Of a stretch of 38,920 nt of DNA, positions 1 through 21,921 are shown piece by piece. The DNA comes from Phascolarctobacterium sp. (GTDB lineage Bacteria; Bacillota; Negativicutes; Acidaminococcales; Acidaminococcaceae), in the NCBI GenBank assembly GCA_020024105.1, contig JAHHUH010000018.1, forward strand, positions 1 through 38,920, in the 5' to 3' direction. The position numbers were made by a program, and so were the translations under genes. The notes under the pieces were generated by a model that saw only the letters and a list, made by a program, of their open reading frames with translations, was not told the DNA's origin and did not search any database. How positions within the stretch are numbered: the first letter of the stretch is position 1; each line of letters opens with the position of its first letter.

Positions 1-8
1 GAGAATAA

Positions 9-60
9 CTCATGATAGCATGAGAATATCTTGATACAAGTTGACAGGATATGCTATAAT
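9..60 (+). promoter_or_regulatory. Promoter with palindromic operator (C-box-like) for the controller/RM operon: perfect inverted repeat CTCATG-ATAG-CATGAG (9-24), -35 TTGATA (31-36), 18-bp spacer, extended -10 TGCTATAAT (52-60)
   Basis: Hexamers and palindrome read directly. The position immediately upstream of a small HTH gene that is translationally coupled to a DNA methyltransferase matches known C-protein autoregulatory architecture. The whole segment is duplicated exactly at 5433-5484. Confidence 0.55.
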
Positions 61-92
61 AATAGAAAATTAGTAGCGAATGGAGAGTTTCA

Positions 93-296
93 ATGCCAGT
101 CAGTTATGATAAGCTCTGGAAAATGTTGATAGACAAAAAGATGAATCGTACAGAGCTAAAGGATCTTGCAGGAATCAGCTTTAATGTCCTCGCCAAAATG
201 GGCAGAGGAGAATTCGTTTCTATGGAAAGCCTGTATAAAATTTGTGTTGCAATGAACTGCGAGATTGATGACATTATGGAGTTTATTAAAGTATGA
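93..296 (+). CDS. Small HTH (XRE / Cro-C1 type) DNA-binding protein, putative restriction-modification controller (C) protein
   Basis: 67 aa. GGAG RBS 7 nt upstream. Its stop overlaps the start of the downstream methyltransferase (ATGA coupling). A paralog sits at 5517-5735. Confidence 0.7.
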   Translation: MPVSYDKLWKMLIDKKMNRTELKDLAGISFNVLAKMGRGEFVSMESLYKICVAMNCEIDDIMEFIKV

Positions 297-1780
297 AAAT
301 AATTGACCATGCTGTTCAAATCACAAATGAATATATCGATCAGATGCCCAAAAAGCTTCGCAAGAAGTATGGTCAGTTCTTCACCAGTAAGGAAACGGCT
401 GTGTTTATGGCACAGTTGCTGAATATTCCTGAAGAGAAAGAAGAAATCTCCATTCTTGATCCTGGAGCTGGATCCGGAATTTTATCTGTGGCGCTGATTG
501 ATAGACTTCAAGGAATGACTAAGCTGAAACGGATTCGTTTGGTTTGCTATGAAAATGATCCGAATGTTTTGGATTTGTTAAAAGCAAATTTGAATTGGGC
601 TTGCCAAAGTTCATCTATTGAAATTGTATATCAGATTATTTCAGACAACTATATCTTAAGTCAGATGGAAGATTACAACTCTATGTTTGGAGCCAATCTC
701 GTCCCAAACAAATATGATTTTGTAATTGGTAATCCTCCCTATATGAAGATTCCCAAAGATGCTCCAGAAGCGTTAGCTATGCCTGATGTCTGTTATGGGG
801 CGCCCAATCTCTATTTTCTGTTTGCAGCTATGAGTCTCTTCAATTTGAATGAAAATGGGGAAATGGTTTATATCATTCCTCGATCCTGGACTTCTGGTGC
901 TTATTTTAGAAGGTTCAGAGAAAAGTTTTTAACAGAAGGGGCACTGGAGTACATTCATTTGTTCGTAAGCCGTGATAAGGTTTTTGAAAAGGAAAGCGTT
1001 CTGCAGGAAACAATTATCATTAAAGTCAAGAAAACACGAAAAAAGCCGGAAAAAATTATCGTAACTTCGACAAAGAGCAATGCCGACTTTTCTGACATTA
1101 CCAAATTTGAAGCGCCTTATTCTACCGTTGTGAGTGGTGATGCGCTTTATGTGTACTTGGTTACTGGACCAGAGGAAGTAGAGACATTAAATTGCCTTAA
1201 TCAGTGGAAAGACACGCTGCCAAATTTGGGAATGAAGATGAAAACCGGATTGACAGTGGATTTCCGAAACAGAGATGTGCTTCGGGATGAAGCTGAAGAA
1301 AAGGCGGTTCCCCTCTTTTATGCGCAGCATATTAAAGATGGAAAGGTGAACTTCCCGGTCGGAAAAGAACATGAATATATTGTCACAGATCAAAAGGGCC
1401 TTCTTCAAAAAAATGTGAACTACCTATTTGTGAAGCGCTTTACAGCCAAGGAAGAACACCGCCGATTGCAGTGTGGTGTATATCTGGCTCGAAAGAACCC
1501 TGAATATACCGAGATTAGCACACAAAATAAATTGAATTTTATTTGCGGGCTGCAGGATTTGTCGGAGTGCGTTGTTTATGGCCTGTATGTCCTTTTTAAT
1601 TCCACCCTATATGACGGATATTATCGTATTTTGAATGGATCGACACAGGTAAACTCTACTGAGGTGAATTCTATGCCGGTTCCTCCTTTAAATATTATTG
1701 AATCAATGGGTAAAAAACTAATTCAAAGTAAAGATATGTCTGAAAAGATGTGTGACAAAATCTTAAGGAGCTTCGTATGA
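293..1780 (+). CDS. N6-adenine DNA methyltransferase, gamma-class (Eco57I / M.PstI-BsuBI-like type II modification methylase)
   Basis: Motif order X (FFTSKETAVFMAQLL), I (ILDPGAGSGILSVAL), IV (GNPPYMKIP). Start overlaps the C gene and the stop overlaps the next ORF. Confidence 0.9.
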   Translation: MKIIDHAVQITNEYIDQMPKKLRKKYGQFFTSKETAVFMAQLLNIPEEKEEISILDPGAGSGILSVALIDRLQGMTKLKRIRLVCYENDPNVLDLLKANLNWACQSSSIEIVYQIISDNYILSQMEDYNSMFGANLVPNKYDFVIGNPPYMKIPKDAPEALAMPDVCYGAPNLYFLFAAMSLFNLNENGEMVYIIPRSWTSGAYFRRFREKFLTEGALEYIHLFVSRDKVFEKESVLQETIIIKVKKTRKKPEKIIVTSTKSNADFSDITKFEAPYSTVVSGDALYVYLVTGPEEVETLNCLNQWKDTLPNLGMKMKTGLTVDFRNRDVLRDEAEEKAVPLFYAQHIKDGKVNFPVGKEHEYIVTDQKGLLQKNVNYLFVKRFTAKEEHRRLQCGVYLARKNPEYTEISTQNKLNFICGLQDLSECVVYGLYVLFNSTLYDGYYRILNGSTQVNSTEVNSMPVPPLNIIESMGKKLIQSKDMSEKMCDKILRSFV

Positions 1781-2697
1781 GTAAATTAGACCAGGCAAGA
1801 GAAATCTTGGCATCATTAGAAGTACCCCTAAAGCAGCAAAATGATATGTGCTGCTATGTTTTATTGGCAATATCCAATATTACTGAAGAGGATGAATGGC
1901 AATCAGCAACAAATAATTGGATTCGAATCCATGATGTTATTCAATTCACTGGAGAAAATTTTGGTGTTGCTTATGCTGAAAACAGCAGGGAAACTATTCG
2001 AAAGCAAGCTTTGCACCATTTCAGAAATGCTGCGTTCATTGAAGATAACGGCAAAGCGACAAATAGCCCCAATTATCGTTACCGCCTAACCGAGGAAATG
2101 CTATCATTGATCCAGAGCTATGGAACTCCGGCATGGGAAGGAAAACTGCATAATTTCTTGGAAGGCCATGACACGCTAATTGATTTATATGCATCCAAAA
2201 AGGAAATGAGGAAAATGCCTGTAAAAATCAATGGCGAAGATTTTACTTTTTCTCCTGGCAAGCATAATCAGCTGCAGAAAGCAATTATTGAGGAGTTTGC
2301 TTCCAGATTTGCCCCTAATTCAGAGTGCTTGTACGTTGGTGATACCATCGAAAAGGACTTGGTCAAGCATGATACAAAGCTTCGTGAATTAGGATTTGAA
2401 ATTACCCTGCATGATAAGATGCCCGATGTTGTTCTGTATGCTGAAGATAAAAACTGGATTTATTTTGTTGAGTCGGTAACTTCCGTAGGTGCAATGGAAC
2501 CTCATCGTGTCCAGGAAATCGAGGAAATGACTAAGAATGTGACAGCAGGCAAAATCTATGTTACAGCATTCCTCGATTTTAAGACTTTCAAAAAGTTTTC
2601 TGAGAACCTGGCGTGGGAAACGGAAGTTTGGATTGCCGATATGCCGGATCATATGATCCATTTGAATGGCGATAAGTTCTTGGGGCCGAGGAGATAA
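1777..2697 (+). CDS. Putative type II restriction endonuclease cognate to the upstream methyltransferase (BsuBI/PstI-like family suspected from size and context)
   Basis: 306 aa, translationally coupled to the MTase. The C-M-R gene order is typical. I could not verify a catalytic motif by eye, so the family call is from memory of PstI/BsuBI operon layout. Confidence 0.5.
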   Translation: MSKLDQAREILASLEVPLKQQNDMCCYVLLAISNITEEDEWQSATNNWIRIHDVIQFTGENFGVAYAENSRETIRKQALHHFRNAAFIEDNGKATNSPNYRYRLTEEMLSLIQSYGTPAWEGKLHNFLEGHDTLIDLYASKKEMRKMPVKINGEDFTFSPGKHNQLQKAIIEEFASRFAPNSECLYVGDTIEKDLVKHDTKLRELGFEITLHDKMPDVVLYAEDKNWIYFVESVTSVGAMEPHRVQEIEEMTKNVTAGKIYVTAFLDFKTFKKFSENLAWETEVWIADMPDHMIHLNGDKFLGPRR

Positions 2698-2718
2698 GAA
2701 AAGTTTGAGGAGTAGAAA

Positions 2719-3582
2719 ATGGTTGTAAAACAGCTGTCACAGCCACAATTAAAATCTTTGTGTGATGTATTGGCAAACTCCGATCCGAACTTAGGGTTAA
2801 CAGAGAGCGAAATTAGGCTAAAGTTAGGGCAATGCTTCATTCACAGTGTAGATAAAGGTGGGTACCGTAATGAGTTCGGGTATATACCTGGATTAAATAA
2901 AAGGGACTGGCTATATAATTGCTTCGCTAACGAGATCAATACAACCAAAAGTTTCAAAAAGATTTTTGATTTTATAGAGAATGCTTTAGATCCTGCCTGT
3001 TATACTTCTGATGGGAAGCGTGCTAAATATAAATATCTTTTTGATGAGAGTAACAAGATATTGTTACTTGTTGGTCTTGAGATACAGGCAAATGGAAAAA
3101 TACATCAAGTGATACAAGCTCAAACCTTAGATGAAGTTGATCAGAGAGTTAAATCACTGGAGCAAAAACTAACCGATCGTAAAATACATGAGGAAGTAAA
3201 AAAATACTGTATCCGTGATTATCTGAGAAAGGATTATCACGATGCAGTATTCGAAGCTGCAAAAGGCGTTGCTCAACGTGTACGAAATATTACAGGCCTC
3301 GAAGAAGATGGTGGTAAATTGTTTCAAAAGGCCTTTTCTCAAAAGGACCCCTATCTTTACTTTAACCTATTGAAGACAGAAAGCGAGATTAGTGAGTTCA
3401 AAGGAGTTGAGAAATTATTGGAAGCCATTTTTAATTTGGTCAGAAATCCTGAAGCACACACTCCTAAGATAAGTTGGACCATTGATGAAGAAGCAGCGTT
3501 AGATGTACTTACTTTAATTTCACTGGCGCATAAATATCTGGATAAATGCAAACCTGTTCCTTATAAAACTCAAAAACCATAG
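2719..3582 (+). CDS. HEPN-motif protein (TIGR02391/Abi-like uncharacterised family suspected)
   Basis: 287 aa, mostly helical-looking. C-terminal R-x4-H motif (RNPEAHTPK) is characteristic of HEPN RNase domains. It lies directly after the RM operon in a low-GC island. Confidence 0.45.
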   Translation: MVVKQLSQPQLKSLCDVLANSDPNLGLTESEIRLKLGQCFIHSVDKGGYRNEFGYIPGLNKRDWLYNCFANEINTTKSFKKIFDFIENALDPACYTSDGKRAKYKYLFDESNKILLLVGLEIQANGKIHQVIQAQTLDEVDQRVKSLEQKLTDRKIHEEVKKYCIRDYLRKDYHDAVFEAAKGVAQRVRNITGLEEDGGKLFQKAFSQKDPYLYFNLLKTESEISEFKGVEKLLEAIFNLVRNPEAHTPKISWTIDEEAALDVLTLISLAHKYLDKCKPVPYKTQKP

Positions 3583-3741
3583 ACCTAAAGTGTAAGGTTT
3601 GTGGTACACCTTGAAAGCTAAGAGGTATGGACTGCCATGAATATTAAAACTACCGATTTAGATGAGAAACTCTATTGATCACTAATACTTATTATGGGTA
3701 CAGGCGTGGTTTGAAAATGTGAGGGGAGGAGTATGGCATAA

Positions 3742-4800
3742 ATGCAAAAGGAAAAACGAAATTCTGTCATGAGTGATGAAGAACGACAGGATTACTGGGA
3801 TACGTTGTGCTCGTTTTCAGGAGAGAATCCTCAAAAAGAAGCAGAAGTATTAGCTACGAAGATTCGGTATCCAAGATTTTTGTATCGCTATCGTTCTGTA
3901 AACAGCAATAACCTGGAAGCATTAAGAACGAATAAACTGTTTTTCTCTCAAGCCAGCAAGTATGATGATCCGTTTGATACATTTTTGCATGTCGATGTTG
4001 ATAAAATTCGCCAGGAGTTTGAAAGTAATTTTAAATCAAACCAAACAATCGCCACGCTGGCAGATGCAATGAAAAGCATGATTGCAACTGTTCCTAATAA
4101 TCTCCCTGTAGAATATATTCAAAAGGTTACAACACCTGAAGGAATAGCAAGTTTGCATGAAAGTGGTTTGACAGATCAATTTTTATCTTACGCATTGACC
4201 TTACGAACAAGAATTCAAGATGAAATCCAGTCCATTTGTTTTTCAGAAAATGGGTTTAATGAAACATTGTGGTTGAAATATGCTAATATGCATAAAGGCT
4301 TCGCACTAATGTATGATTTGAACAATCCAGAAAACTATCACTGCGGAAAAAGCGAAAAATGTAAAAATTGCGGTGTTCACTTATATGGTACCCCTATCTA
4401 TCCTGTATATTATTCTGACGTTCCATATGATGCTACTAATTTTGCAAAGAAGGTTATGGCACAGGAAATGGTAAGAATTCTGGGGATTCCAATGCCGGAA
4501 TTTTTCAACAAAGAGTACGGCCCCATGACATGGGAAAAAGAGCGCAACAGCTTAATAAAAAAAGAATGCCACAGATACGATGAGGAATGGCGAATGATCG
4601 CTAATTGTCAAATGAAGCCACCAGCAATGATTGAATGGGTGCCAGACGGTGTGATTATAGGCCTTAGAACATCCCCAGTGGAGGAAAATTTAATTATTTC
4701 AATGGCATTGCAGGCCGGTATAAAAAATATATACAAATCTAAGATTGACAAAGAAAACCGTTTGAATGCTTTCCCTATATACAGTGCTTCCAATAAATAG
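3742..4800 (+). CDS. DUF2971-like protein (defence-island-associated, unknown function) with Cys-rich insert
   Basis: N-terminal LYRYRSVNSNNLEALRTNKLFFSQASKYDDPFD closely resembles the DUF2971 signature as I recall it. CxxC...CxxC cluster HCGKSEKCKNCGVH. GGGGAGGAG RBS. Confidence 0.5.
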   Translation: MQKEKRNSVMSDEERQDYWDTLCSFSGENPQKEAEVLATKIRYPRFLYRYRSVNSNNLEALRTNKLFFSQASKYDDPFDTFLHVDVDKIRQEFESNFKSNQTIATLADAMKSMIATVPNNLPVEYIQKVTTPEGIASLHESGLTDQFLSYALTLRTRIQDEIQSICFSENGFNETLWLKYANMHKGFALMYDLNNPENYHCGKSEKCKNCGVHLYGTPIYPVYYSDVPYDATNFAKKVMAQEMVRILGIPMPEFFNKEYGPMTWEKERNSLIKKECHRYDEEWRMIANCQMKPPAMIEWVPDGVIIGLRTSPVEENLIISMALQAGIKNIYKSKIDKENRLNAFPIYSASNK

Positions 4801-5102
4801 TCTCCTGCCGGAACAAAACACTGTCTGGAAAATCATCCTTATGTATGCTATAATACATCCAAGCCACCTGTACGGCATCTATTATGCGGGTGATAGATTT
4901 TTGATAGCAAAAATTCGGATAGACCACAGGATAAGTATAATCTGTATAAAACAGAATAACGTCGTATGAAATCCGCTAAACAGAAAAGTTTAGAAAACGA
5001 TTTAACTCGGCGAGTGGGAATAATTTTAAAAGCATAAAAATATTGTTTATTAATGTATTTTCAAGGGTATTGATGCTTTGCAGAGATATATTATATATAA
5101 AG

Positions 5103-5146
5103 AAAAGTCTTACCAATCTTGGGTTGGTAAGACTTTTTGCTTTATT
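5103..5146. terminator. Rho-independent terminator (12-bp perfect stem AAGTCTTACCAA/TTGGTAAGACTT, loop TCTTGGGT, then TTTTGCTTTATT)
   Basis: Read directly. A-run upstream makes it potentially bidirectional. It closes the RM/HEPN/DUF2971 transcription unit. Confidence 0.75.
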
Positions 5147-5424
5147 AGGAATACGTAAAGAATTCAATATTTCCGAACATTATGCAGATAAATTCATTAG
5201 GGCACATACTGATAAGAAGAAAAAGTTTTTGTTGTTAAGGATAAGAAGATAGGGCGTGTCCCACTTCTTGTAGCTATCGTAATAGTGAACTGATATATGG
5301 TCGATTATATGGAATATCTGATTGTCTATGCATGGTATCCTGGAAGCAATGCACGAGAACTGGTAGGGTATGTGAAACATAAAAGAATTCTTATCAAATT
5401 GCTCATAAATCCTTAAAATAAACT

Positions 5425-5552
5425 GAGAATAACTCATGATAGCATGAGAATATCTTGATACAAGTTGACAGGATATGCTATAATAATAGAAAATTAGTAG
5501 CGAATGGAGAGTTTCAATGCCAGTCAGTTATGATAAGCTCTGGAAAATGTTA
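5425..5552 (+). repeat. Direct repeat: 128 bp identical to window 1-128 (operator, promoter, RBS and first 36 nt of the C-protein gene). Similarity at reduced identity (about 80%) continues through the coding region to about 5735.
   Basis: Base-by-base comparison of 1-260 with 5425-5684. Copy 1 starts at the window edge, so the repeat may extend further upstream there. Confidence 0.9.
5433..5484 (+). promoter_or_regulatory. Second copy of the C-box palindrome CTCATGATAGCATGAG, -35 TTGATA and extended -10 TGCTATAAT
   Basis: Identical to 9-60. Confidence 0.55.
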
Positions 5553-5735
5553 ATAGATAAAAAGATGAACCGTACAGAGTTAAAAGATGCTGCAGGAATT
5601 AGTTTTAATGTTCTCGCTAAAATGGGTCGTGATGAGTTTGTTTCCATGGAAAGTCTTCATAAAATCTGCAAGACGTTATCTTGCAATATAGGCGAGATAG
5701 TAGAATTTACGGACGAGGAGCAATCAAGGCAGTAA
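5517..5735 (+). CDS. Paralogous small HTH controller (C) protein
   Basis: 72 aa. The first 12 codons are nucleotide-identical to the 93-296 gene, then diverge (K/R and D/E substitutions, different C-terminus). Followed 48 nt later by a C5-MTase N-terminal remnant. Confidence 0.7.
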   Translation: MPVSYDKLWKMLIDKKMNRTELKDAAGISFNVLAKMGRDEFVSMESLHKICKTLSCNIGEIVEFTDEEQSRQ

Positions 5736-5782
5736 TAGAGATAAATTATTAGTTATTATGAGTATGGAGAGAATTATTTATT

Positions 5783-6041
5783 ATGCAGCAACCATTAACA
5801 TGTGTAGAAATTTGCGCAGGAGCTGGTGGACAGGCTTTGGGATTGGCCATGGCTGGATTCGTCCATGTCGCTTCATATTGTAGTCGTCACCGCTGAGTCT
5901 ATGCCTAATTGTGTGGCATCCTTTGTACTTGGTACAGAAGACATTGATAGTGTCTGCTACTTTGCGCTGTATGAGATGATCGGAGATGTCAAGGAAGTTA
6001 TCTCTGAAGATATAGTTGAAACTTTGGGAACGTTTGTCTAG
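5783..6041 (+). pseudogene. Remnant of a C5-cytosine DNA methyltransferase (motifs I-III only, frameshifted and truncated before the PCQ motif)
   Basis: Frame A 5783-5896: MQQPLTCVEICAGAGGQALGLAMAGF (motif I FxGxGG region), then a stop. Frame B (ORF 5826-6041) continues with ...CYFALYEMIGDVKEV..., resembling the motif II/III region of Dcm-type enzymes (compare M.HhaI EVYEMNFGE..GDITQV). Total is under 90 codons of an expected 350 or more. Confidence 0.65.
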
Positions 6042-6122
6042 GGGAAGTGGCTGAAGGATATTTCGGATTTACCGTTATACCTATCTATATAAACTGTTCA
6101 TAAAAGAAAGAAGTGAAATGTT

Positions 6123-8954
6123 GTGATAACAGAATGTGGATCAGAGTGGAATCGCTGGGACTTGCATCTGCATACGGCGTCTTCCTATGATTACAAATAT
6201 AAATCTGCTGATGCTGATGATTTGTTATGCCAAACTTTGAAACAAAATGGGGTAAAGGCCGTAGCCATAACGGATCATTTTAAAATCGATAAAGATAGAA
6301 TAGAAAGTTTACGTGCAAAAGCTCCTGAAATAGTGTTCTTTCCAGGGGTGGAACTTCGCACGGATAAAGGGGCAAATAATCTCCATCTAATACTGATTTT
6401 TTCCGAAAAATCGGATTTATCTACATTGTCAGCGGATTTTGACGCTATTATGGTACGGCAAAAGGCAAAATCTCCTGAATCTAATGATACAATCTATTGG
6501 GAGTTTTCTGACATTGTCTCTTTTGCAAAAGAACATAACGCTCTTATCACCATTCATGCTGGTAAAAAATCAAATGGGATTGATAAGGAAATTTCAAATT
6601 CTTTGCCAGTTAAGGAGGCAATTAAAGCTGATATTGCAAAGAACGTAGATTTTTTTGAAATCGGCCAGAAACGTGATACAGATTCTTATGAGAAATATGT
6701 CTTCAAGGAAATTGATCGAAAACCACTGATAATGTGCTCTGACTCGCATTCACCGCATGAATATAATCCAAAAGAAAATCTGTGGATCAAGGCCGATCTT
6801 ACTTTTGAAGGACTCAAACAGTGTTTATATCAACCGTTAGAACGAGTGTTTATCGGAGATATTCCCCCTATTCTGGATAGGGTCAATAAAAATAAACAAG
6901 GCAATATAGCTTCAATATCGTGCACTCGTGCAGAGAAACCGGTTAATGTAGACTTCAATTGGTTTGATTTTGAAATTCCTCTTAATCCAGGGATGATTGC
7001 TATAATTGGAAATAAAGGAAGCGGAAAAAGTGCTTTTTCTGATATTATTGCACATCTTTGTCGTTGCAGAACAATGGCAAGTGCATCCTTTTTAAATTCC
7101 AAAAGATTCAGGAAGGCTCCCAAAAATTATGCTAACGATTATTCTGCAACCTTAACATGGGTTGATGGAGAAAAGCGCAGTAGTTCCTTAGCAGCATATC
7201 AAGGGGACGCTTCTATTGAGGATGCACAGTATTTACCTCAAAAATACATTGAAGATGTGTGCAATGATTTTGAAGATGTTTTTCAAAAGGAAATTGACAA
7301 AGTCATTTTTTCATATGTGGATAAAACCGAGCGAGGTGATGCCCAAAATCTTGATGAACTTGTAAGGTTAAAGTCCAAACCATTGGAAATACGCTTTCAA
7401 AACGCACGAATTAAACTTGAGGATGTTAACAGAAGAATAATTAGGCTGGAGGATAAGCGAACTCAGGAATATCGAAAAAATCTCTCTGATAGTCTTAACA
7501 AAGCAGATGAAACATTGAAAAGACATGAAAAATCAAAACCCGTAGCCGTAAACAAACCGGATGGTAAAGATTCTAACGATGAGTATCAAGCCAAACTCAC
7601 TCAATTAAATCAAAGTATTGAGGATACAAAAGGAGAAATTCAAAAGATCAACGATCAAATTAGTGGTATCAATGCTTTTGTAGATGACGTCAGAACAATA
7701 GTAGCACAGATAGCACTTCTTAAAACACATTTTGGAGAAATCCAGGGAAAGATCGATGAACTTTCCGACAAGTATAGTTTAAATAAAGAGGACTATGCGT
7801 TTGCCCTGACTACACCTGATGAGTACTTCGATGAACTAATAAATAAAGCCGGTAAAGATAAGCTGGAATTGCAAGAAACTATTTCTGATTCGAATTCTGA
7901 TTCGAAAACTGGACTTGCTTTTTTACTTTCACAGTACGAGGCAGAAAAATCAATGTTAATTTCCTCAGCAGATGCAGAAGAAAAAGCGTACCAAAAATAT
8001 CTTAAGGATTTAGAAGAATGGGACAATAAGAAATCTGAAATCATAGGAAATAAAGATAGTGAAGGTTCCATTGAGTTCTATAAATACGCCCTTAATTATA
8101 TTGATACAATGCTTATCCCTGAGTATGAGGGACTTGTAAACGAAAGAGATGAAATCTCAAGGTCGCTTTATGAGGGGATAGTCGAGCTTTCACATATTTA
8201 CCAAAGTATATATGCACCCATTCAAGGTGAAATATCTGGGTTGCTTGGGGATTTGGAAGATAATGTCGAATTTCATGCTGAAGTGTTCATGCAAGATACA
8301 AGGATCGCTTCTAATATTTTAAGGTTTATTAATCAAAAATATAATGGAAAATATGGACGTTCCCATAATTCTTTGCAAGAGATAGAGAATAGAGTCAAAA
8401 CTACAAACTTTGGTGATGAAATAGAGGTAATGAATTTTGTTCATGATCTTGCAGAAGTGATAACCAGTGATTTCGAAACGGCAGAAAAGAGAGTTTCTAA
8501 TCGCCAAGAGTTTTATGACTTTATATTTGGACTGGAATATATTGGGGTTAATTTTAAACTCAAAATGGGTAATCACCCATTAGAAGAGCTTTCTCCAGGC
8601 GAACGAGGAATTATCTTGTTGATTTTTTATCTTGCCCTCAGTAAGGAAAGCAAGCCTATAATTATAGATCAACCGGAAGACAATCTGGATAATCAATCTG
8701 TTTATAGTAAATTGGTACCATGTATATGCAAAGCAAAGCAAAAACGTCAAGTTATCATTGTAACGCACAACCCTAATATTGCAGTTGCGTGTGATGCTGA
8801 ACAGATTGTTTATTGCGAGATGGATAAGGTGACAAACCAAATAACCTATGTTTCTGGTGCTATAGAAAACCAGACCATTCGAAATCATGTTGTGGATGTG
8901 CTTGAAGGAACTATGCCTGCGTTTGATTTGAGAAGATTGAAATATAATCAATAG
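6123..8954 (+). CDS. 943-aa fusion protein: N-terminal PHP (polymerase/histidinol-phosphatase) phosphoesterase domain plus Rad50/SbcC/SMC-like ABC ATPase with coiled-coil insert. Candidate single-protein anti-phage effector.
   Basis: PHP motifs WDLHLHTASSYD, VAITDH, TIHAG, MCSDSHSPHEY. Walker A IAIIGNKGSGKSAFSD. About 450-aa charged, heptad-rich region. ABC signature LSPGERG, Walker B PIIIDQPEDNLD, H-loop VIIVTHNP. GTG start (6123) after a purine-rich RBS. Low GC. Sits under the duplicated C-protein promoter. Confidence 0.8.
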   Translation: MITECGSEWNRWDLHLHTASSYDYKYKSADADDLLCQTLKQNGVKAVAITDHFKIDKDRIESLRAKAPEIVFFPGVELRTDKGANNLHLILIFSEKSDLSTLSADFDAIMVRQKAKSPESNDTIYWEFSDIVSFAKEHNALITIHAGKKSNGIDKEISNSLPVKEAIKADIAKNVDFFEIGQKRDTDSYEKYVFKEIDRKPLIMCSDSHSPHEYNPKENLWIKADLTFEGLKQCLYQPLERVFIGDIPPILDRVNKNKQGNIASISCTRAEKPVNVDFNWFDFEIPLNPGMIAIIGNKGSGKSAFSDIIAHLCRCRTMASASFLNSKRFRKAPKNYANDYSATLTWVDGEKRSSSLAAYQGDASIEDAQYLPQKYIEDVCNDFEDVFQKEIDKVIFSYVDKTERGDAQNLDELVRLKSKPLEIRFQNARIKLEDVNRRIIRLEDKRTQEYRKNLSDSLNKADETLKRHEKSKPVAVNKPDGKDSNDEYQAKLTQLNQSIEDTKGEIQKINDQISGINAFVDDVRTIVAQIALLKTHFGEIQGKIDELSDKYSLNKEDYAFALTTPDEYFDELINKAGKDKLELQETISDSNSDSKTGLAFLLSQYEAEKSMLISSADAEEKAYQKYLKDLEEWDNKKSEIIGNKDSEGSIEFYKYALNYIDTMLIPEYEGLVNERDEISRSLYEGIVELSHIYQSIYAPIQGEISGLLGDLEDNVEFHAEVFMQDTRIASNILRFINQKYNGKYGRSHNSLQEIENRVKTTNFGDEIEVMNFVHDLAEVITSDFETAEKRVSNRQEFYDFIFGLEYIGVNFKLKMGNHPLEELSPGERGIILLIFYLALSKESKPIIIDQPEDNLDNQSVYSKLVPCICKAKQKRQVIIVTHNPNIAVACDAEQIVYCEMDKVTNQITYVSGAIENQTIRNHVVDVLEGTMPAFDLRRLKYNQ

Positions 8955-9118
8955 TAGCCTATGTCGTACGGCAACACTCTGGCAACACAAAATCAGATAG
9001 CCTATACTATCCTGATAATGAGAATAATAGTGATACGAGATGTTATTTCCACTAACTAAAAAAGCTTAGTTTTCCTTAACCAGGAGCGAATGTGAATAAT
9101 TAAATAAGGATTTTAGTA

Positions 9119-9170
9119 CCCCGGAAAGCTTTGAAAATAAAGAGCTTTCCGGGATATTTTGGTTTTAGGG
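9119..9170 (+). terminator. Rho-independent terminator (11-bp perfect stem CCCGGAAAGCT/AGCTTTCCGGG, 12-nt loop, then ATATTTTGGTTTT)
   Basis: Read directly, 165 nt after the stop of the 943-aa gene. Confidence 0.75.
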
Positions 9171-12726: not shown

Positions 12727-13653
12727 TTATAGCTGCTTATCATAAAATGCCAGCTGCCGGAGCAATCTAGCTTTCAGCTTCTGGATAATACGGTCCGGAC
12801 TGAGTACCTGGATAAGAGGACCTAGGGAAAGCAGGCGGATAATCAGTTCTGCTTCGTCCTCGCTGTCATAGCTAATGGTAATTTGGTAGGTATGGGCTGT
12901 CAGTCTGGTGGTTTCCTTGGCAAAATGGGAAAATTGCAGGAGGGCCCGGTTAAGGGCGTTGCGGTGATCGTCCAGAATGAAGGCCAGCTGCTGTTGGGGC
13001 GGCTCCAGCACCCCGCCCAGTGGCGGAGGGTCAGCAAGGAGGGTACAGCTGTGAATACCGGAGAGCCTGAGGATGTAGCTTCTTTGGGCACCACTACCTC
13101 TAACTCTAAATTTATCATCCTTGGCAGAGTATTCCAGGTAGAGGGGAAGAAAATGGAGCTTTTGGAGCCGGTGGCCCTTCGTATAGTAGGTAAATGCCAG
13201 CTCCTGCCGCTGCTGGATGGCTTGGAGGATGGTCCGGAAGTTGGCTATGTAGTGGGGGCTACGAAAATTATCTCCGTCCTGGTAGCGGTCATAATAGACA
13301 ATGTCCTGCCAATCGAAAAGGGGCTTGAGCTTTTCCAGACCCTGGGTGCTAGGGCTAAAGAGCTGGATACGAGGGTCCTGGAGCAGGGTTGCGAGCCAGC
13401 GCTTTTCTAAAAGGGAGAGGGGCTGCTGAGGTGGATGGCGGATAACGGTGCTCAGGTCCTTCCGTAGCAGGGGCCATTCCTGCTGCAATGCCTGGGGCAG
13501 GGTAAGGACGCTTTCTTCAAAGGCCTTTTCCCGGACCAGCTGGTACAGCCTGTCCTGGGTAAGCTGGCCTCGGACGGCTTCCTGTAGGATGGCTGTAACA
13601 GTAGTAAAATAAACATTATAAATTTCCTGAAAGAGCATCTTCTTCACCTCCAT
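12727..13653 (-). CDS. WYL-domain protein (regulator-like, no obvious HTH)
   Basis: 308 aa. WYL-like stretch LPLYLEYSAKDDKFRVRGSGAQRSYILRLSGI. Overlaps the upstream gene by 38 nt. Confidence 0.5.
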   Translation of the reverse strand: MEVKKMLFQEIYNVYFTTVTAILQEAVRGQLTQDRLYQLVREKAFEESVLTLPQALQQEWPLLRKDLSTVIRHPPQQPLSLLEKRWLATLLQDPRIQLFSPSTQGLEKLKPLFDWQDIVYYDRYQDGDNFRSPHYIANFRTILQAIQQRQELAFTYYTKGHRLQKLHFLPLYLEYSAKDDKFRVRGSGAQRSYILRLSGIHSCTLLADPPPLGGVLEPPQQQLAFILDDHRNALNRALLQFSHFAKETTRLTAHTYQITISYDSEDEAELIIRLLSLGPLIQVLSPDRIIQKLKARLLRQLAFYDKQL

Positions 13654-14869
13654 AGAGTGCCAGCATTTTTAGTAAATCCTCTCGGTAGAGCTCCAGCAGG
13701 CGGGGATTAGTGCAGTCCAGCTTTTTGATGCGGCCGTAAAAGGTTCGTAGCCAGGGGAGCATTTCCAGCGTATCGTAAACATCGGCAGTAAAAAGATAGG
13801 TATCCTCCGCCAGCTTCTGGACGGAGCCGCAACGTTTTTCCCGATACAATCTCTGGACCAGATAGCCTTCTTCTGGTTCAAAGTGCAAGGTGACTTCTAA
13901 ATGCTCCGTGGTTTCCTGACCATTATATGAAACACCCCAAAGCCGCTGCTGAAATTCTGCCAGGGGCTGCTCCAGCTCCTGAACGGCAGGGTAAATATTG
14001 CCGGGGGTAACACTGATCAGCATATCCACCCGGTAAAAGCGGAAGCTGTGGTATTTTAGGGAATAGGACAGAAGAAAGCAGCGGCCACTTTGAACGCTGG
14101 TATAAATTTTTAAGGGCAGGACCTCCTGGGGTGGGAGGGGCTGCTGCTGACGGTTGACCAGCTCTAGCTGAACACAGCGGTGCTCCTGGAGGGCGGCAAG
14201 GAGGCTGTAAAGAATTTCGCTGTCCAGGGCGTGGAGGATGTAGTGATGCTTAAAGCGGAAGGGCTGCTCCATGGGGGGCAGCTTGTCCAGCAGAAAGGAG
14301 CCGAGGACGCCTAGGGGAGCCGTTTCTGCGTAAAAGCTGAGGGCAGTAGCCCAGGAGCTTAATGCAACCTGCTGGGGTGTTAGTCTGTAATAGAGCTCAC
14401 AACCGGATTTTTCTGTGGTTAATAGTCCCAGCCGTACATATTCCTGAAGCTTTTTGCGGATGGTGGAGGCATCAAGATTAAAATTCGTGTCAAAATGGGC
14501 TAAATAATCCTGGTAAATGCGGTTCACAATGGCTGTCGTTGTCAGGGACAGGCCACCGGCTAAAATATCCAGCAGATAAAAATGCAGGGTAATATCCCTG
14601 GCGGTAAAGCTTTTAGTTTTTAAGGATTTATAGAGGGGATTACTGGTGATGGCTCTGCTGTCCACGGAGAGGAAAACCTGCTTTCCCTCAGCATTGCGGT
14701 GAAAGGACAGATAATCTCCCAGCCAGCTTTCAATGCGGCGGCGTTCATTATCATAGCTGCGACGATTTTTGGGGGCGTAGTCCTCGCGACTTTTAAAGCC
14801 GTAAACATAGAATTGGCGCATGTAGGTACGGATTTTCTGATAATCCTTAATTAATTCACTATAGGCCAT
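13616..14869 (-). CDS. WYL-domain transcriptional regulator (N-terminal winged-HTH-like region plus WYL)
   Basis: 417 aa. WYL signature FLLSYSLKYHSFRFYRVDMLISV. Co-directional with and overlapping the second WYL gene (PafB/PafC-like pairing). Confidence 0.6.
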   Translation of the reverse strand: MAYSELIKDYQKIRTYMRQFYVYGFKSREDYAPKNRRSYDNERRRIESWLGDYLSFHRNAEGKQVFLSVDSRAITSNPLYKSLKTKSFTARDITLHFYLLDILAGGLSLTTTAIVNRIYQDYLAHFDTNFNLDASTIRKKLQEYVRLGLLTTEKSGCELYYRLTPQQVALSSWATALSFYAETAPLGVLGSFLLDKLPPMEQPFRFKHHYILHALDSEILYSLLAALQEHRCVQLELVNRQQQPLPPQEVLPLKIYTSVQSGRCFLLSYSLKYHSFRFYRVDMLISVTPGNIYPAVQELEQPLAEFQQRLWGVSYNGQETTEHLEVTLHFEPEEGYLVQRLYREKRCGSVQKLAEDTYLFTADVYDTLEMLPWLRTFYGRIKKLDCTNPRLLELYREDLLKMLALYGGEEDALSGNL

Positions 14870-17736: not shown

Positions 17737-18465
17737 GTGATAATGATGGATAGAATTCTAGACTTTGAGAACTGGATGCAAGAAAATAGTGTTTTAAGTG
17801 CAAGTACTAGATATAAATATCGTTTAGCGGTGAGCAGTATATCCAAGGACATGTTGCGTGAAGGTGTTATTCATAAAAAATTAATTGATATGAATCTTTT
17901 AGAGTTAGATTTATCCATAGCTAATATAGTCGTAAATCCATTTTTTATAAATAAGAATAAGGTTGGCCACAACATGTATAGTAATAGTTTGAGGCAGTAT
18001 CGCTACTATTTACTATTACACGAAAATGATGTTGATGATAAATCAGAGGAAGCTTTGATTGGAGATGTATCAGAAACAGAGAGGGTTGTTCTATCTAAGG
18101 CTAGAGTTGGGCAAGGTGTATATAGAGATGAATTGTTGAGAAAATACGGTGGTAAGTGTGTAATTACCGGTATAGACCATCCCAAGCTGTTAATAGCTAG
18201 TCATATAAAACCATGGAAGGTAGCTAATAATAAAGAGCGGATTGATGTTAATAACGGGTTATTGCTTTCAGCAAATATGGACAAGCTTTTTGATAGTGGA
18301 CTGATAACCTTTAAAGCTAATGGACAAATGGTAATTTCTTCGTATGTAGGTCAAACTAATAGTAAATTATTGGGGCTTTCTGATGATATGGTTGTAAATC
18401 TTTTACCAACTGCGGATTTGTTAAGATATATGGAATATCATAGGGATGTATTATTCGTAAAATAA
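17737..18465 (+). CDS. HNH_2-type (PF13391-like) HNH endonuclease with uncharacterised N-terminal domain
   Basis: C-terminal ...RVGQGVYRDELLRKYGGKCVITGIDHPKLLIASHIKPWKVANNKERIDVNNGLLLSANMDKLFDSGLITF matches the HNH_2 signature (R..Q..FR..LL..Y...C.ITG....LL.AAHIKPW......NGLLL...HRLFD.G). Probable start ATG 17743. Low GC. Confidence 0.8.
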   Translation: MIMMDRILDFENWMQENSVLSASTRYKYRLAVSSISKDMLREGVIHKKLIDMNLLELDLSIANIVVNPFFINKNKVGHNMYSNSLRQYRYYLLLHENDVDDKSEEALIGDVSETERVVLSKARVGQGVYRDELLRKYGGKCVITGIDHPKLLIASHIKPWKVANNKERIDVNNGLLLSANMDKLFDSGLITFKANGQMVISSYVGQTNSKLLGLSDDMVVNLLPTADLLRYMEYHRDVLFVK

Positions 18466-19023: not shown

Positions 19024-21921
19024 ATGAATAAAGCAGAATTACAAATCTGTTTGGAAGCAGGCTTTATAGATTTTAATATTGATACAGATGAGCGTACTTT
19101 ACCTAAGATTCTAACCAATAATCAAGAGGAAAAAGTTAAAGTTTTAGACTCTTTGTTATATGAATTAAAAAATTGTGATGAATTTTTCTTTTCAGTAGCT
19201 TTTGTTACTAATAGTGGTGTAGCTTGTTTAATAGACATTTTAAATGAACTTAAAAATAAGAATATTAAGGGTAAAATACTAGCTTCCCAATATCAAAACT
19301 TTACAGAGCCTAGGGCTTTGAGAAGATTATTACAGTTTCCTAATTTAGAATTAAAAATTATCACAGCGGATTATAATTTCCACGCTAAAGGGTACCTATT
19401 TCATAAAAAAGCAAATTCTGAGCTTCAGCAAGAAGATAATTATAACATGATTATTGGAAGTAGTAATCTTACGCAAACAGCATTAACCATAAATCGTGAG
19501 TGGAATGTACAGCTTTCTTCCTTAAAGAATGGTGCTTTAATTAAGCAAATGCAGAAGGAATTACAACTAGCTTGGAATGATGCTACGGTAGTGGATGAAA
19601 ATTGGATAGCTTCTTATGAGACAATTTATCAGCAGGCTAGAAGTAGCCGTTTAGAGCAGAAACATGCAGTTATTGATTTATACAAAATTAATCCTAACAA
19701 AATGCAGGCTGAGGCATTACAAAGTTTGCAAGCCTTACGTGCTGAGGGAAAGAATAAGGCTCTACTAATTTCTGCTACTGGTACTGGTAAAACGTATTTA
19801 TCAGCTTTTGATGTTAGAGTAGTAAAGCCTAAAAGGTGTTTATTTGTTGTACATCGTAATTTGATTGCGAGGACAGCGAAAAGAAGCTTTGAAAAGGTAA
19901 TTGATAAAAATATCAGTACAGGTATCTTTTCTGGAAATAAAAAAGAAATAGATAAGGACTATTTATTTGCAACTATCCAAACTTTGGAAAAGGATGAAAA
20001 TTTAAAATTATTTGCACCTGATTATTTCGATTATATCGTTATTGATGAAGTACATCATGCGGGAGCGGAAACCTATCAAAAGGTGATGAAATATTTTAAA
20101 CCTAAATTTTTATTAGGTATGACAGCAACGCCGGAGCGTACTGACGGATACGATATTTTTAAAGCCTTCGATTATAATATCGCTTATGAAATTCGTTTGA
20201 ACCAAGCTCTAGAAGAAAATATGCTAGTTCCTTTTCATTATCATGGAATCAGTGAAATCACTGTGGACGGTCAGCTTTTAGACGAGCACACCGACTTTAG
20301 TAAATTAGTTTGCGAAGAACGCGTTAAACACATACTTCACTATGCAGAATTTTATGGTTGTGATTACGGACGAGTTAAGGGATTGGTATTTTGTAGCAGT
20401 ATAGCAGAAGCCGAAGAATTATCAGCAAAATTTTGTGAATATGGGAAAAATGCAACAGTGGTGACTGGTAAAAATTCTGAGGAGTTCCGTTCAGAGGCTA
20501 TTAAACGTTTAGAAAGTGATGTTTTACCTAGAGCTGAGCAGTTGGATTATATTTTTACAGTAGATGTTTTTAATGAAGGCGTAGATATACCCGCTATTAA
20601 TCAAATTGTTATGCTTAGACCTACTCAATCTGCTATTGTTTTTGTTCAGCAATTAGGCCGTGGTTTGCGTAAAAGTAATAATAAGCGTTATTTAGAGGTT
20701 ATTGATTTTATTGGTAACTACGAAAATAATTACTTACTTCCTATTGCCTTATTTGGAGACCGTAGTTACAACAGAGAAAAAGTACGCAAAGCAGTTCATA
20801 TCAATTATATGCCAGGTGCTTCTACTGTTTATATCGACGATATAGCTAAGGAAAAAATTTTTGCATCTCTTAATACAGGTAGAATCAGCTTATTTAAGGA
20901 ATATAAAAAATCCTATGAGTTAGTAAAGTTCAAATTAGGTCGAAGCCCTATGATGATGGATTTTGTCAATTTAGGAGATAAAGATCCTTATTTGTTTGTA
21001 CTTAAAGATGGCTCTTATTTTCATTTTAAGCAGCATGTAGATGTAGATGGTAGTAGAATCAGTGCGATAGCAGAAAAACTGTTAAAATTTATAGGCTTAG
21101 AATTGTGCAATGGTAAGCGTTTGGAGGAAATTGTTATACTTCAAGAGCTTTTGCATAGAGATAGCATTGGTGTGAAAGAGGTTCAACAATTTATGGAAGC
21201 AACTTATGATGTTCCTACCAATGAAGCAAGTATCTTAGGTGCGCTTAATGTTTTACAAATGACCTTCTTTAAGGAAGGGGACGCTAACAAGTATGGCAAT
21301 CTTCCTCTAGTAGAAATGTCATCGGGGAATAAACTTACTTTGACCACAGATTTTAAGGCATTGCTGGTTGATGAAAAGTTTAAATTTTATCTTGAGGATA
21401 GCTTGGCATACGCTAAGTGTAGTTTTTTAGCTACTTATGATAGGAAGAAATATATTAATGGTTTTAAATTATACGAAAATTATTCTCGTAAGGATGCCTG
21501 TCGTATTTTAAATTGGCAACATGATGATAGCTCTACTGTTTATGGTTATCGAGTAAAATATGATACCTGCCCTATGTTTGTCACTTACAATAAACAGGAT
21601 GATATTAGTGCTAGTACTAAATACGAAGACCGTTTCATTTCTCCTAAAGTTTTTAGTTGGATGACTAGAAGTAGGGTAAATATTTTTTCTAAGGAAGTAT
21701 TGGAAATTCAAAAGGCTAAAGTTAGAAAATTACTTTTTGTGAAAAAATCAGATGGTGATGGAACCTCTTTCTATTACATGGGTGATGTTACTACGGAGCC
21801 AGAAAAGTGTATCCAAGAACAGATTGAAGACGATAATGGGAATAAGCTTCCTATAGTTAATATTATTTATAAGATGGATAAATCTGTGGATGAGAGAATT
21901 TATAGTTATTTTGAAGATTAG
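19024..21921 (+). CDS. PLD-family (HKD) nuclease domain plus SF2 DEAH helicase (ResIII/Helicase_C) plus C-terminal DUF3427-like region. Defence-island helicase-nuclease.
   Basis: 965 aa. HKD motif FHAKGYLFHK...IIGSSNLT. Walker A LISATGTGKTYLSA. DEVHH (IVIDEVHHAG). Motif III GMTATPER. Motif VI QQLGRGLRK. The long C-terminal extension matches the size of DUF3427. Low GC. Confidence 0.85.
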   Translation: MNKAELQICLEAGFIDFNIDTDERTLPKILTNNQEEKVKVLDSLLYELKNCDEFFFSVAFVTNSGVACLIDILNELKNKNIKGKILASQYQNFTEPRALRRLLQFPNLELKIITADYNFHAKGYLFHKKANSELQQEDNYNMIIGSSNLTQTALTINREWNVQLSSLKNGALIKQMQKELQLAWNDATVVDENWIASYETIYQQARSSRLEQKHAVIDLYKINPNKMQAEALQSLQALRAEGKNKALLISATGTGKTYLSAFDVRVVKPKRCLFVVHRNLIARTAKRSFEKVIDKNISTGIFSGNKKEIDKDYLFATIQTLEKDENLKLFAPDYFDYIVIDEVHHAGAETYQKVMKYFKPKFLLGMTATPERTDGYDIFKAFDYNIAYEIRLNQALEENMLVPFHYHGISEITVDGQLLDEHTDFSKLVCEERVKHILHYAEFYGCDYGRVKGLVFCSSIAEAEELSAKFCEYGKNATVVTGKNSEEFRSEAIKRLESDVLPRAEQLDYIFTVDVFNEGVDIPAINQIVMLRPTQSAIVFVQQLGRGLRKSNNKRYLEVIDFIGNYENNYLLPIALFGDRSYNREKVRKAVHINYMPGASTVYIDDIAKEKIFASLNTGRISLFKEYKKSYELVKFKLGRSPMMMDFVNLGDKDPYLFVLKDGSYFHFKQHVDVDGSRISAIAEKLLKFIGLELCNGKRLEEIVILQELLHRDSIGVKEVQQFMEATYDVPTNEASILGALNVLQMTFFKEGDANKYGNLPLVEMSSGNKLTLTTDFKALLVDEKFKFYLEDSLAYAKCSFLATYDRKKYINGFKLYENYSRKDACRILNWQHDDSSTVYGYRVKYDTCPMFVTYNKQDDISASTKYEDRFISPKVFSWMTRSRVNIFSKEVLEIQKAKVRKLLFVKKSDGDGTSFYYMGDVTTEPEKCIQEQIEDDNGNKLPIVNIIYKMDKSVDERIYSYFED

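Follow-up and report, generated by a model that had tools for sequence, protein, structure and literature searches.

Why do two regulator genes on one bacterial contig agree to the last base in their control regions and first codons, and diverge immediately behind them? The question is raised by contig JAHHUH010000018.1 of a Phascolarctobacterium sp., which was analysed over its entire length of 38,920 bp (the window). Bases 1-127 of the window are exactly identical to bases 5425-5551, and each copy of this block runs into a gene for a small VanU-like helix-turn-helix (HTH) regulator, named C1 and C2, respectively. The explanation that we favour, with moderate confidence, involves two tandem units, each led by the same module of operator, promoter, leader and regulator gene. 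Unit 1 (1-5138) would be a predicted functional restriction-modification (RM) operon of the PstI type, with the gene order regulator, methyltransferase, endonuclease (C-M-R), followed by two accessory defence genes. Unit 2 (5425-9153) is the leftover of a C-M-R operon with a 5-methylcytosine (m5C) methyltransferase and an NgoMIV-type endonuclease, in which the regulator gene, the promoter and a downstream TrlF gene are intact. The identity of 127 bp would then represent a recent gene-conversion tract, with C1 as the most likely donor and C2 as the recipient, and the two units would share a repressor-type control.

The first mismatch behind the block, G128 against A5552, is synonymous (TTG/TTA, Leu). 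The first-pass annotation had reported an exact duplication of 128 bp; the repeat itself was correctly recognized, and its length is 127 bp. The coding part comprises the first 11 codons plus two bases of codon 12 rather than the 12 codons counted earlier, while the palindrome and the TTGATA promoter as well as the ribosome-binding site (RBS) listed there all lie inside the block. In copy 1, GGAG is located at 82-85 and the ATG at 93, with a leader of ~26 nt. At lower identity the repeat reaches 244 nt (91% overall). There are 0 mismatches in the 127 positions of the block and 22 in the next 117 (Fisher p = 3e-8), and the resulting 81% identity matches the value of about 80% given before for the downstream part. 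The palindrome with its flank occurs at two places only within the window, in the two modules, and the two module promoters are the two best matches in the first 9.6 kb (11/12 plus TG). Copy 1 begins at contig base 1, and therefore the left boundary of the repeat is not directly readable.

Comparison with relatives retrieved by a protein-based locus search enabled us to trace the origin of the block. The survey covers 93 related loci (given L numbers), mostly from human gut metagenomes, 90 of which have enough upstream sequence for operator analysis. The C1 orthologues L110, L111 and L112, from three other assemblies, are 97.8% identical to the window over 2.6 kb, and L110 and L112 differ from it within 1-127 at positions 1, 19 and 89 only, which sets the baseline divergence. 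Copy 2 differs from L112 at 23 of 91 positions between -138 and -48 and at 7 of 48 between -47 and 0, then at 2 of 126 between 2 and 127, and again at 22 of 117 between 128 and 244. Copy 2 holds a sharply bounded island of C1-lineage sequence, with flanks that are 15-25% diverged. In the C2-type relatives L020 and L002, 11-12 of the 127 positions are unlike the window, and neither shows an island against copy 2 (L020: 11/127 versus 11/117). The allele T89 was seen in the two window copies only and therefore points to a transfer within this genome after the split from the L110-L112 lineage. The block is most likely the product of a recent intragenomic gene conversion, that is, a non-reciprocal recombination between C modules. 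Recent gene conversion or recombination had been proposed in the first-pass annotation from the confinement of the identity to the module; the sharp block (0/127 versus 22/117) and the mosaic relative to L110-L112 bear this out.

Could very strong purifying selection on the operator, promoter, RBS and N-terminal codons have produced the identity with no recombination at all? The module is the best-conserved part of the family, and the N-terminal 47 residues are nearly invariant across it. However, the 11-12 differences of L002 and L020, whose overall divergence is similar, include non-functional positions in the spacer and leader as well as synonymous sites, giving a probability of ~1e-5 for zero differences. 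The lack of an island between L020 and copy 2 and the private T89 common to both copies speak against selection as well. Exact and degenerate scans with 28-39 nt of the module gave no match in the two public collections genome_contigs and metagenome_contigs. Pure selective conservation was rejected on the L002/L020 comparison, and we consider it extremely improbable.

The conversion probably proceeded from C1 to C2. The right edge of the tract lies between positions 89 and 128. Differences between L110/L112 and copy 2 at positions -5, -1, 0 and 1 place the left edge of the tract probably near position 1. C1 is in turn a mosaic of older date: it matches the L020/L002 type over positions 1-190 (about 90-94%), and its 3' end alone resembles the PstI-type C gene of L009. 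A different recombination event was also considered, namely a Campbell-type insertion in which a circular PstI cassette with a C module recombined once into a resident C module and left a hybrid module on each side. Such an event would agree with the tandem layout and the direct repeats around a self-contained cassette, and with the cassette exchange in or just after the C gene that is common in the family. It would, however, make the sequence upstream of copy 2 (5285-5424) ~98% like the C1 upstream of L110/L112, whereas only 78-85% was found, and the exact identity of both products would need identical parents or a later conversion. We down-weighted this insertion because the upstream flank of copy 2 is not C1-lineage-like, and judge it improbable.

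The shape of the block might instead reflect assembly: a contig start at a branch with k = 127, a repeat that continues further leftwards, or a graph loop formed by 128-5551, which, instead of being fixed in tandem, could be a variably present cassette, excisable or circular, or one from another strain. The repeat starts at base 1 of the whole contig, and a k of 127 is where SPAdes and the MEGAHIT 'meta-large' preset usually stop. Related contigs often break at the module as well (L004, L005, L033, L081 and L111), and Logan contigs of the same sequencing runs carry the PstI cassette with 20 clustered mismatches and the TrlF segment at 100% identity. If k was 127, the contig would begin with the k-mer at the branch, and the repeat may be longer on its left side; if k was smaller and the path was extended through the repeat, the contig would begin with the first base that is truly shared. 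The latter is favoured by the comparison with L110/L112: the upstream sequence of the C1 orthologues departs from that of copy 2 at -5 to 1, which suggests a true left edge near base 1 and is also the picture that path extension with k < 127 would give. Against an assembly effect, a de Bruijn contig start still needs reads that join 1-127 to G128. Moreover, the start of a Logan contig that is 100% identical to 5522-8999 (k=31; SRR14298101-103) lies exactly 30 nt ahead of the mismatch at 5552, in agreement with a genuine branch in the reads, and neither a replication gene nor an integrase gene is among those identified in the 5.4-kb segment between the repeats. Under either k, the identity must be real over at least 127 bp. 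An assembly origin of the block is in our view unlikely, yet it deserves more weight than the Campbell-type insertion.

Table 1 Features of the two units and their shared module in the window.
Feature	Position	Strand	Remarks
Repeat copy 1	1-127	+	Operator, promoter, leader, RBS, first 35 coding bases of C1; contig edge
Operator palindrome CTCATGATAGCATGAG, copy 1	9-24	.	Core CTCA-N8-TGAG; end 6 nt 5' of -35
Promoter of C1 unit (predicted)	31-60	+	TTGATA 31-36, 18-nt spacer, TG-extended TATAAT -10 TGCTATAAT at 52-60
C1, 67-aa VanU-like XRE/HTH_26 regulator	93-296	+	99% identical orthologues in L110-L112
N6-adenine DNA methyltransferase (Eco57I/N6_Mtase type), PstI-type system	293-1780	+	Domain match
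BsuBI/PstI-family restriction endonuclease	1777-2697	+	PF06616 207 bits, PF17728 143 bits; overlaps M gene
Hypoth_Ymh / PD-Lambda-3_B-like protein	2719-3582	+	22 nt after R
PDC-S31-like (weak DUF2971) protein	3742-4800	+	Last gene of unit 1
Terminator-like hairpin ending unit 1	5102-5138	.	Strong, bidirectional; 17-pair stem plus T run
3'-end remnant of YpsA-like gene	5243-5424	+	Homologous to sequence 5' of C in L002, L020, L001
Repeat copy 2	5425-5551	+	Same module 5' of C2
Operator palindrome CTCATGATAGCATGAG, copy 2	5433-5448	.	Identical to copy 1 operator
Promoter of C2 unit (predicted)	5455-5484	+	Identical to C1-unit promoter
C2, 72-aa VanU-like XRE/HTH_26 regulator, now orphan controller gene	5517-5735	+	93-96% identical proteins lead intact C-M-R operons
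m5C DNA methyltransferase stub, first ~30 codons	5783-5872	+	PF00145 positions 2-27 of 324; motif I (EICAGAGG)
NgoMIV-family endonuclease stub, last ~56 codons	5874-6041	+	Other frame; PF09015 positions 203-258 of 275
TrlF-family PHP + AAA-like ATPase, Ppl-related defence candidate	6123-8954	+	82 nt after R stub
Terminator-like hairpin ending unit 2	9120-9153	+	13 pairs, 7 GC, T run

The features of both units are collected in Table 1. The stop codon of C1 overlaps the start of the methyltransferase gene (ATGA at 293-296). Both endonuclease domains of the BsuBI/PstI type adjoin an N6-adenine methyltransferase, which identifies unit 1 as a type II RM system of this family with C1 at its head, as had been proposed. 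The Hypoth_Ymh-like gene is probably part of the same transcription unit as R, and no terminator was predicted after it before 5102. In L010 and L100, too, the PstI cassette is accompanied by the PDC-S31-like gene. The window and Logan contig L010 (SRR14298102) differ at 20 positions, all of them within two patches, 433-523 and 1458-2103, which lie within M and where M meets R, and the same runs give the TrlF segment at 100% identity; this clustering suggests allelic recombination or strain mixing in the cassette. No relatives of the PstI-type M protein were found in viral contigs. The spacer 3' of unit 1 (4801-5242) is non-coding and AT-rich (33% GC), and a promoter-like site lies in it at 4826-4854 (TG-extended TATAAT). 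It could encode a small transcript, and an Rfam search gave no RNA family anywhere in the window, the region 4801-5424 included.

Unit 2 was understood by comparison with L002/L003, where a protein 93% identical to C2 leads an intact operon of C, M (m5C, 354 aa) and R (NgoMIV family, 291 aa). Two segments of the window could be aligned with L002, namely 5243-5872 (L002 318-954) and 5874-6074 (L002 2456-2656), with ~1.5 kb absent relative to L002 at the junction 5872/5873. The same junction was found in Logan contig L006, from independent k=31 assemblies of SRR14298101-103. Unit 2 is a C-M-R operon with an internal deletion of ~1.5 kb that fuses the start of M to the end of R. The M stub sits at the start of an open reading frame (ORF) of 37 codons, and of a NgoMIV-type type IIP system only these ends of M and R are left as a remnant. 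The YpsA-like remnant region is also homologous to sequence 5' of C1 in L110/L112 and forms a conserved upstream context of the module. Independent internal deletions of the same C-M-R operon were seen in three metagenomic loci (L001 6900-7800, L032 50-1100 and L026 460-1500); their end points differ, the C gene and its promoter are spared in each, and orphan C genes thus recur.

The gene behind the deletion, TrlF, belongs to its family with 634 bits against the NF045780 cut-off of 350, spanning residues 6-942 of 943, and its N-terminus gives a weak PHP match (residues 13-100). The PADLOC Ppl model matches the protein with 118 bits. A literature search on TrlF returned unrelated spectroscopy papers only. 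On the plus strand, terminator-like hairpins were predicted only at the ends of the two units. Neither a terminator nor a promoter-like site was predicted over 5735-6123, between C2 and TrlF, and a consensus promoter scan of the plus strand gave no promoter-like site between 5534 and 6426; therefore, TrlF may be transcribed by read-through from the C2 promoter.

The same interval also bears on the proposal that C2 is a dedicated regulator of the PHP-ATPase gene and that the module evolved for co-ordinated, delayed expression of RM and non-RM effectors. The uninterrupted path from C2 to TrlF fits this proposal, as do the family members in which the module stands directly 5' of a gene outside RM, for a TIR protein (L089) or a UvrD-like helicase (L042/L081), and the same-strand accessory genes that commonly follow R (61/67 loci). 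However, the M and R stubs intervene between C2 and TrlF, the close relatives of C2 (93-96%) lead intact C-M-R operons, and TrlF was found behind the module in none of the fetched loci apart from the window's own strain. The near-consensus promoter and the VanU homology also speak against a delay of the activator type. We regard this proposal as improbable: C2 as the driver of a non-RM effector, as it had been described in the first-pass annotation, is not the native arrangement, and the orphaned head of a deleted RM operon is the description that we retain.

How would the two regulators act? C1 and C2 are 83% identical as proteins over 64 residues, with HTH_26 matches of 60-64 bits. A five-helix XRE fold was predicted for both, and the predicted recognition helix (helix 3, residues 30-36) is identical. 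Together with the shared operator and promoter, these features agree with the earlier description of paralogous genes of the controller type. Across the family, the operator core CTCA-N8-TGAG is perfect in 62/90 loci and has at most one mismatch in 88/90 (chance expectation 0.06%), and it always lies 67-69 nt 5' of the ATG. On its 3' side are conserved (A/T)TATCTTG, which contains the -35 element, a spacing of 17-18 nt, and TGnTATAAT. A second conserved palindrome over the -35 element was sought and none was convincing: a CTTG-ATA-CAAG (29-39) is specific to the window, and only GAGATTATCTTG is conserved in the family.

Of the homologues that are solved and characterised, VanU(G) from the vanG operon of Enterococcus faecalis (PDB 3TYR) comes closest (48% identity, E 4e-16, template modelling score (TM) 0.77); it is a negative autoregulator that binds imperfect palindromes between -70 and -20 (PMC4405338). 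VanU(G) and the window regulators are both encoded by the first gene of an operon with a short leader (22 nt versus ~26 nt), and the window palindrome, a predicted site at ~-58 to -43 of the predicted start, is compatible with the VanU(G) sites at -70 to -20 of a sigma-70 promoter. The window module has one clear palindrome, and its cargo consists of RM and defence genes, whereas that of VanU(G) is a two-component system and resistance genes. With 66.3 and 72.1 bits against the equivalog cut-off of 150 for the VanU family (NF000090), the window proteins are homologues of VanU and not VanU itself.

The resemblance to the C proteins of RM systems is of a different kind. Like C.PvuII, C.AhdI, C.Esp1396I and C.BclI, the window regulators are small XRE-type HTH proteins (67 and 72 aa), and structures of C.BclI, C.Esp1396I and C.AhdI are among their PDB matches. 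C.BclI is the second-best structural match (TM 0.64, 30% identity), with a marginal sequence E of 0.02. The C gene is first in the RM operon, as in the 70/93 related loci with the arrangement C-M(m5C)-R(NgoMIV type), and overlaps it in the ATGA of C1; a conserved palindromic operator is located just 5' of its own promoter; and one type of regulator precedes many RM specificities. Unlike the order C-R of those systems, M directly follows C in the window. The PvuII/AhdI type has a 35-bp double C-box with a GTG spacer, whereas the window has a single 16-bp CTCA-N8-TGAG box and a near-consensus promoter with an extended -10 element (11/12); classical C-dependent promoters have no recognisable -10 element and need activation (PMC2632904). 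The module would accordingly be classed, from these comparisons, as a C-protein-like control of an RM operon that is neither a PvuII/AhdI-type member nor VanU.

We favour repression over activation because the promoter is near-consensus and VanU(G) negatively regulates itself. Bound as dimers to the palindrome, the regulators would probably repress the strong promoter from which they are themselves expressed, and expression would come in a burst followed by a shut-down. For the same reasons, the delayed expression that had been suggested for this locus is doubtful if it is meant to act by activation. With identical operators and recognition helices, each of the two proteins should act at both promoters, and cross-regulation by C1 and C2 is plausible; the PstI operon would be coupled to TrlF via read-through. 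Pairs of C genes with the same motif, 60-2900 bp apart, have been listed, and joint circuits were suggested for them (Sorokin et al. 2009, Table 3; PMC2632904). In the window, by comparison, the regulatory block is exactly identical and a live operon is paired with a decayed one, which was not reported for those pairs. In the framework of C-protein incompatibility, or 'apoptotic mutual exclusion' (Nakayama and Kobayashi 1998, reviewed in PMC3874152), C is an activator of R, and the prediction is trans-action of a resident C protein on any incoming system that shares its C-box (PMC3874152). The window resembles this model in having two RM units in one genome with regulators of shared operator specificity. 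It differs in that its regulator is more likely a repressor and one of the systems lacks complete M and R genes. By analogy, a resident repressor copy would dampen an incoming operon rather than induce it prematurely.

An HTH within the methyltransferase itself offers a further comparison. DNA methyltransferases of the SsoII/Ecl18kI type carry an N-terminal autoregulatory HTH. In the window the HTH is a separate protein, whereas in the family members L015-L018, which are viral contigs, an m5C methyltransferase (410 aa, 5001-6230) carries HTH_26 fused to its N-terminus. This fusion links the regulator domain to the autoregulation of methyltransferase operons.

Several points weigh against the explanation given above. 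The direction of conversion rests on three variable sites, and G1 and C19 also occur in some C2-type relatives, so that the opposite direction would fit too. The left edge of the block and the strict linkage of both copies on one molecule depend on the assembler. The one clear palindrome lies near -50, 5' of the -35 element, which is not the classic position for a simple repressor. Finally, a promoter of TrlF may have been overlooked by the consensus scan.

The family as a whole shows how the module is combined with other genes. Intact operons most often have the order C-M(m5C)-R(NgoMIV family)-Vsr (L013, L021 and 37 others), in which Vsr starts 3 nt after R. A Vsr gene follows R in 39/67 C-M-R loci, and some further same-strand gene does so in 61/67; elsewhere, the slot after R holds TIR-DUF1883, a D12 methyltransferase with AAA_15, DUF2806/Abi_alpha or GmrSD. 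The same C module is found 5' of PstI-type operons in L009 and L110-112, 5' of an N4/N6 methyltransferase with an XcyI-type endonuclease in L046, and 5' of a type IIG enzyme in L064. Members at 61-67% identity stand directly 5' of type I hsdR-hsdM-hsdS genes on plasmids of Enterococcus lactis (L113 4001-8192) and Clostridium beijerinckii (L114 4001-8201), where their only annotation is 'helix-turn-helix transcriptional regulator'; the palindromes 5' of these genes are not of the CTCA-N8-TGAG form. No second C gene of the family was found in any of the other 93 loci within the retrieved flanks (up to 10 kb). C1, C2 and an 85-aa antisense ORF at 5180-5437 were looked up as exact sequences, and no record was returned.

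Breakpoints between related loci are common in the C gene or just after it, in line with the recombination at C-boxes proposed for the window. L046 and L047 have the upstream flank, the C gene and the distal flank in common but not the RM cargo. Between L042 and L047, 98% identity holds as far as 15 nt beyond the C stop and is then lost, L064 departs from L063 at 40 nt 5' of the C stop, and L089 and L048 have the promoter and C gene alone in common. Segment-wise clustering revealed further mosaics such as L044. These comparisons support the C module as a frequent boundary of cassette exchange in the family. The module might even serve as a portable 'docking handle', in which homologous recombination swaps or stacks RM and other defence cargos in gut bacteria and orphan C genes are kept for control, although we rate this extension as rather unlikely. 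If it holds, an orphan C would set the expression state of arriving cassettes with the same operator and would here also control TrlF, and one regulator family would act as a control and exchange hub for unrelated defence systems across phyla.

If the favoured explanation is correct, three stages of RM turnover stand side by side in the window: a live operon, a decayed operon reduced to its regulator, and homogenised control regions. The comparison also defines a large, unrecognised group of VanU-like leaders with the operator CTCA-N8-TGAG, which are publicly annotated only as 'helix-turn-helix regulators' and, in gut bacteria, stand at the head of RM operons of types I, II and IIG as well as of some defence genes outside RM. 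Through shared operators, resident and incoming cassettes could regulate each other, which bears on the assembly of defence islands and on barriers to gene transfer. Pairs of same-motif C genes at one locus and trans-action between C systems have already been described. The locus is a tidy case of RM turnover and of control regions evolving in concert, and does not represent a novel kind of system; current ideas are not overturned, and the C-protein concept is extended to another regulator family.

The two units lie in the first ~22 kb of the window, a defence island of low GC content (33-39% versus 45%). Two adjacent WYL-domain proteins (308 and 417 aa) are encoded in it at 12727-14869 on the minus strand. 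Further along, a type IV methyl-directed restriction enzyme (19024-21921, plus strand) combines PLD, helicase and DUF3427 domains (PADLOC mREase_IV, 747 bits), and an HNH endonuclease is encoded nearby (17737-18465, plus strand); both are 13 kb from the deleted m5C methyltransferase. Speculatively, a conflict of methyl-directed restriction with m5C modification could have favoured the loss of the NgoMIV-type system. At the far end, the contig (38909-38920) reads ...AAATAACTCA, and its last 9 nt (AATAACTCA) equal positions 4-12, which lead into the palindrome. A circular contig was considered and rejected, as the end shares only these 9 nt with the beginning; a third operator just beyond the contig end is conceivable. 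The MetH protein of the window genome is 80% identical to MetH of Phascolarctobacterium metagenome-assembled genomes.

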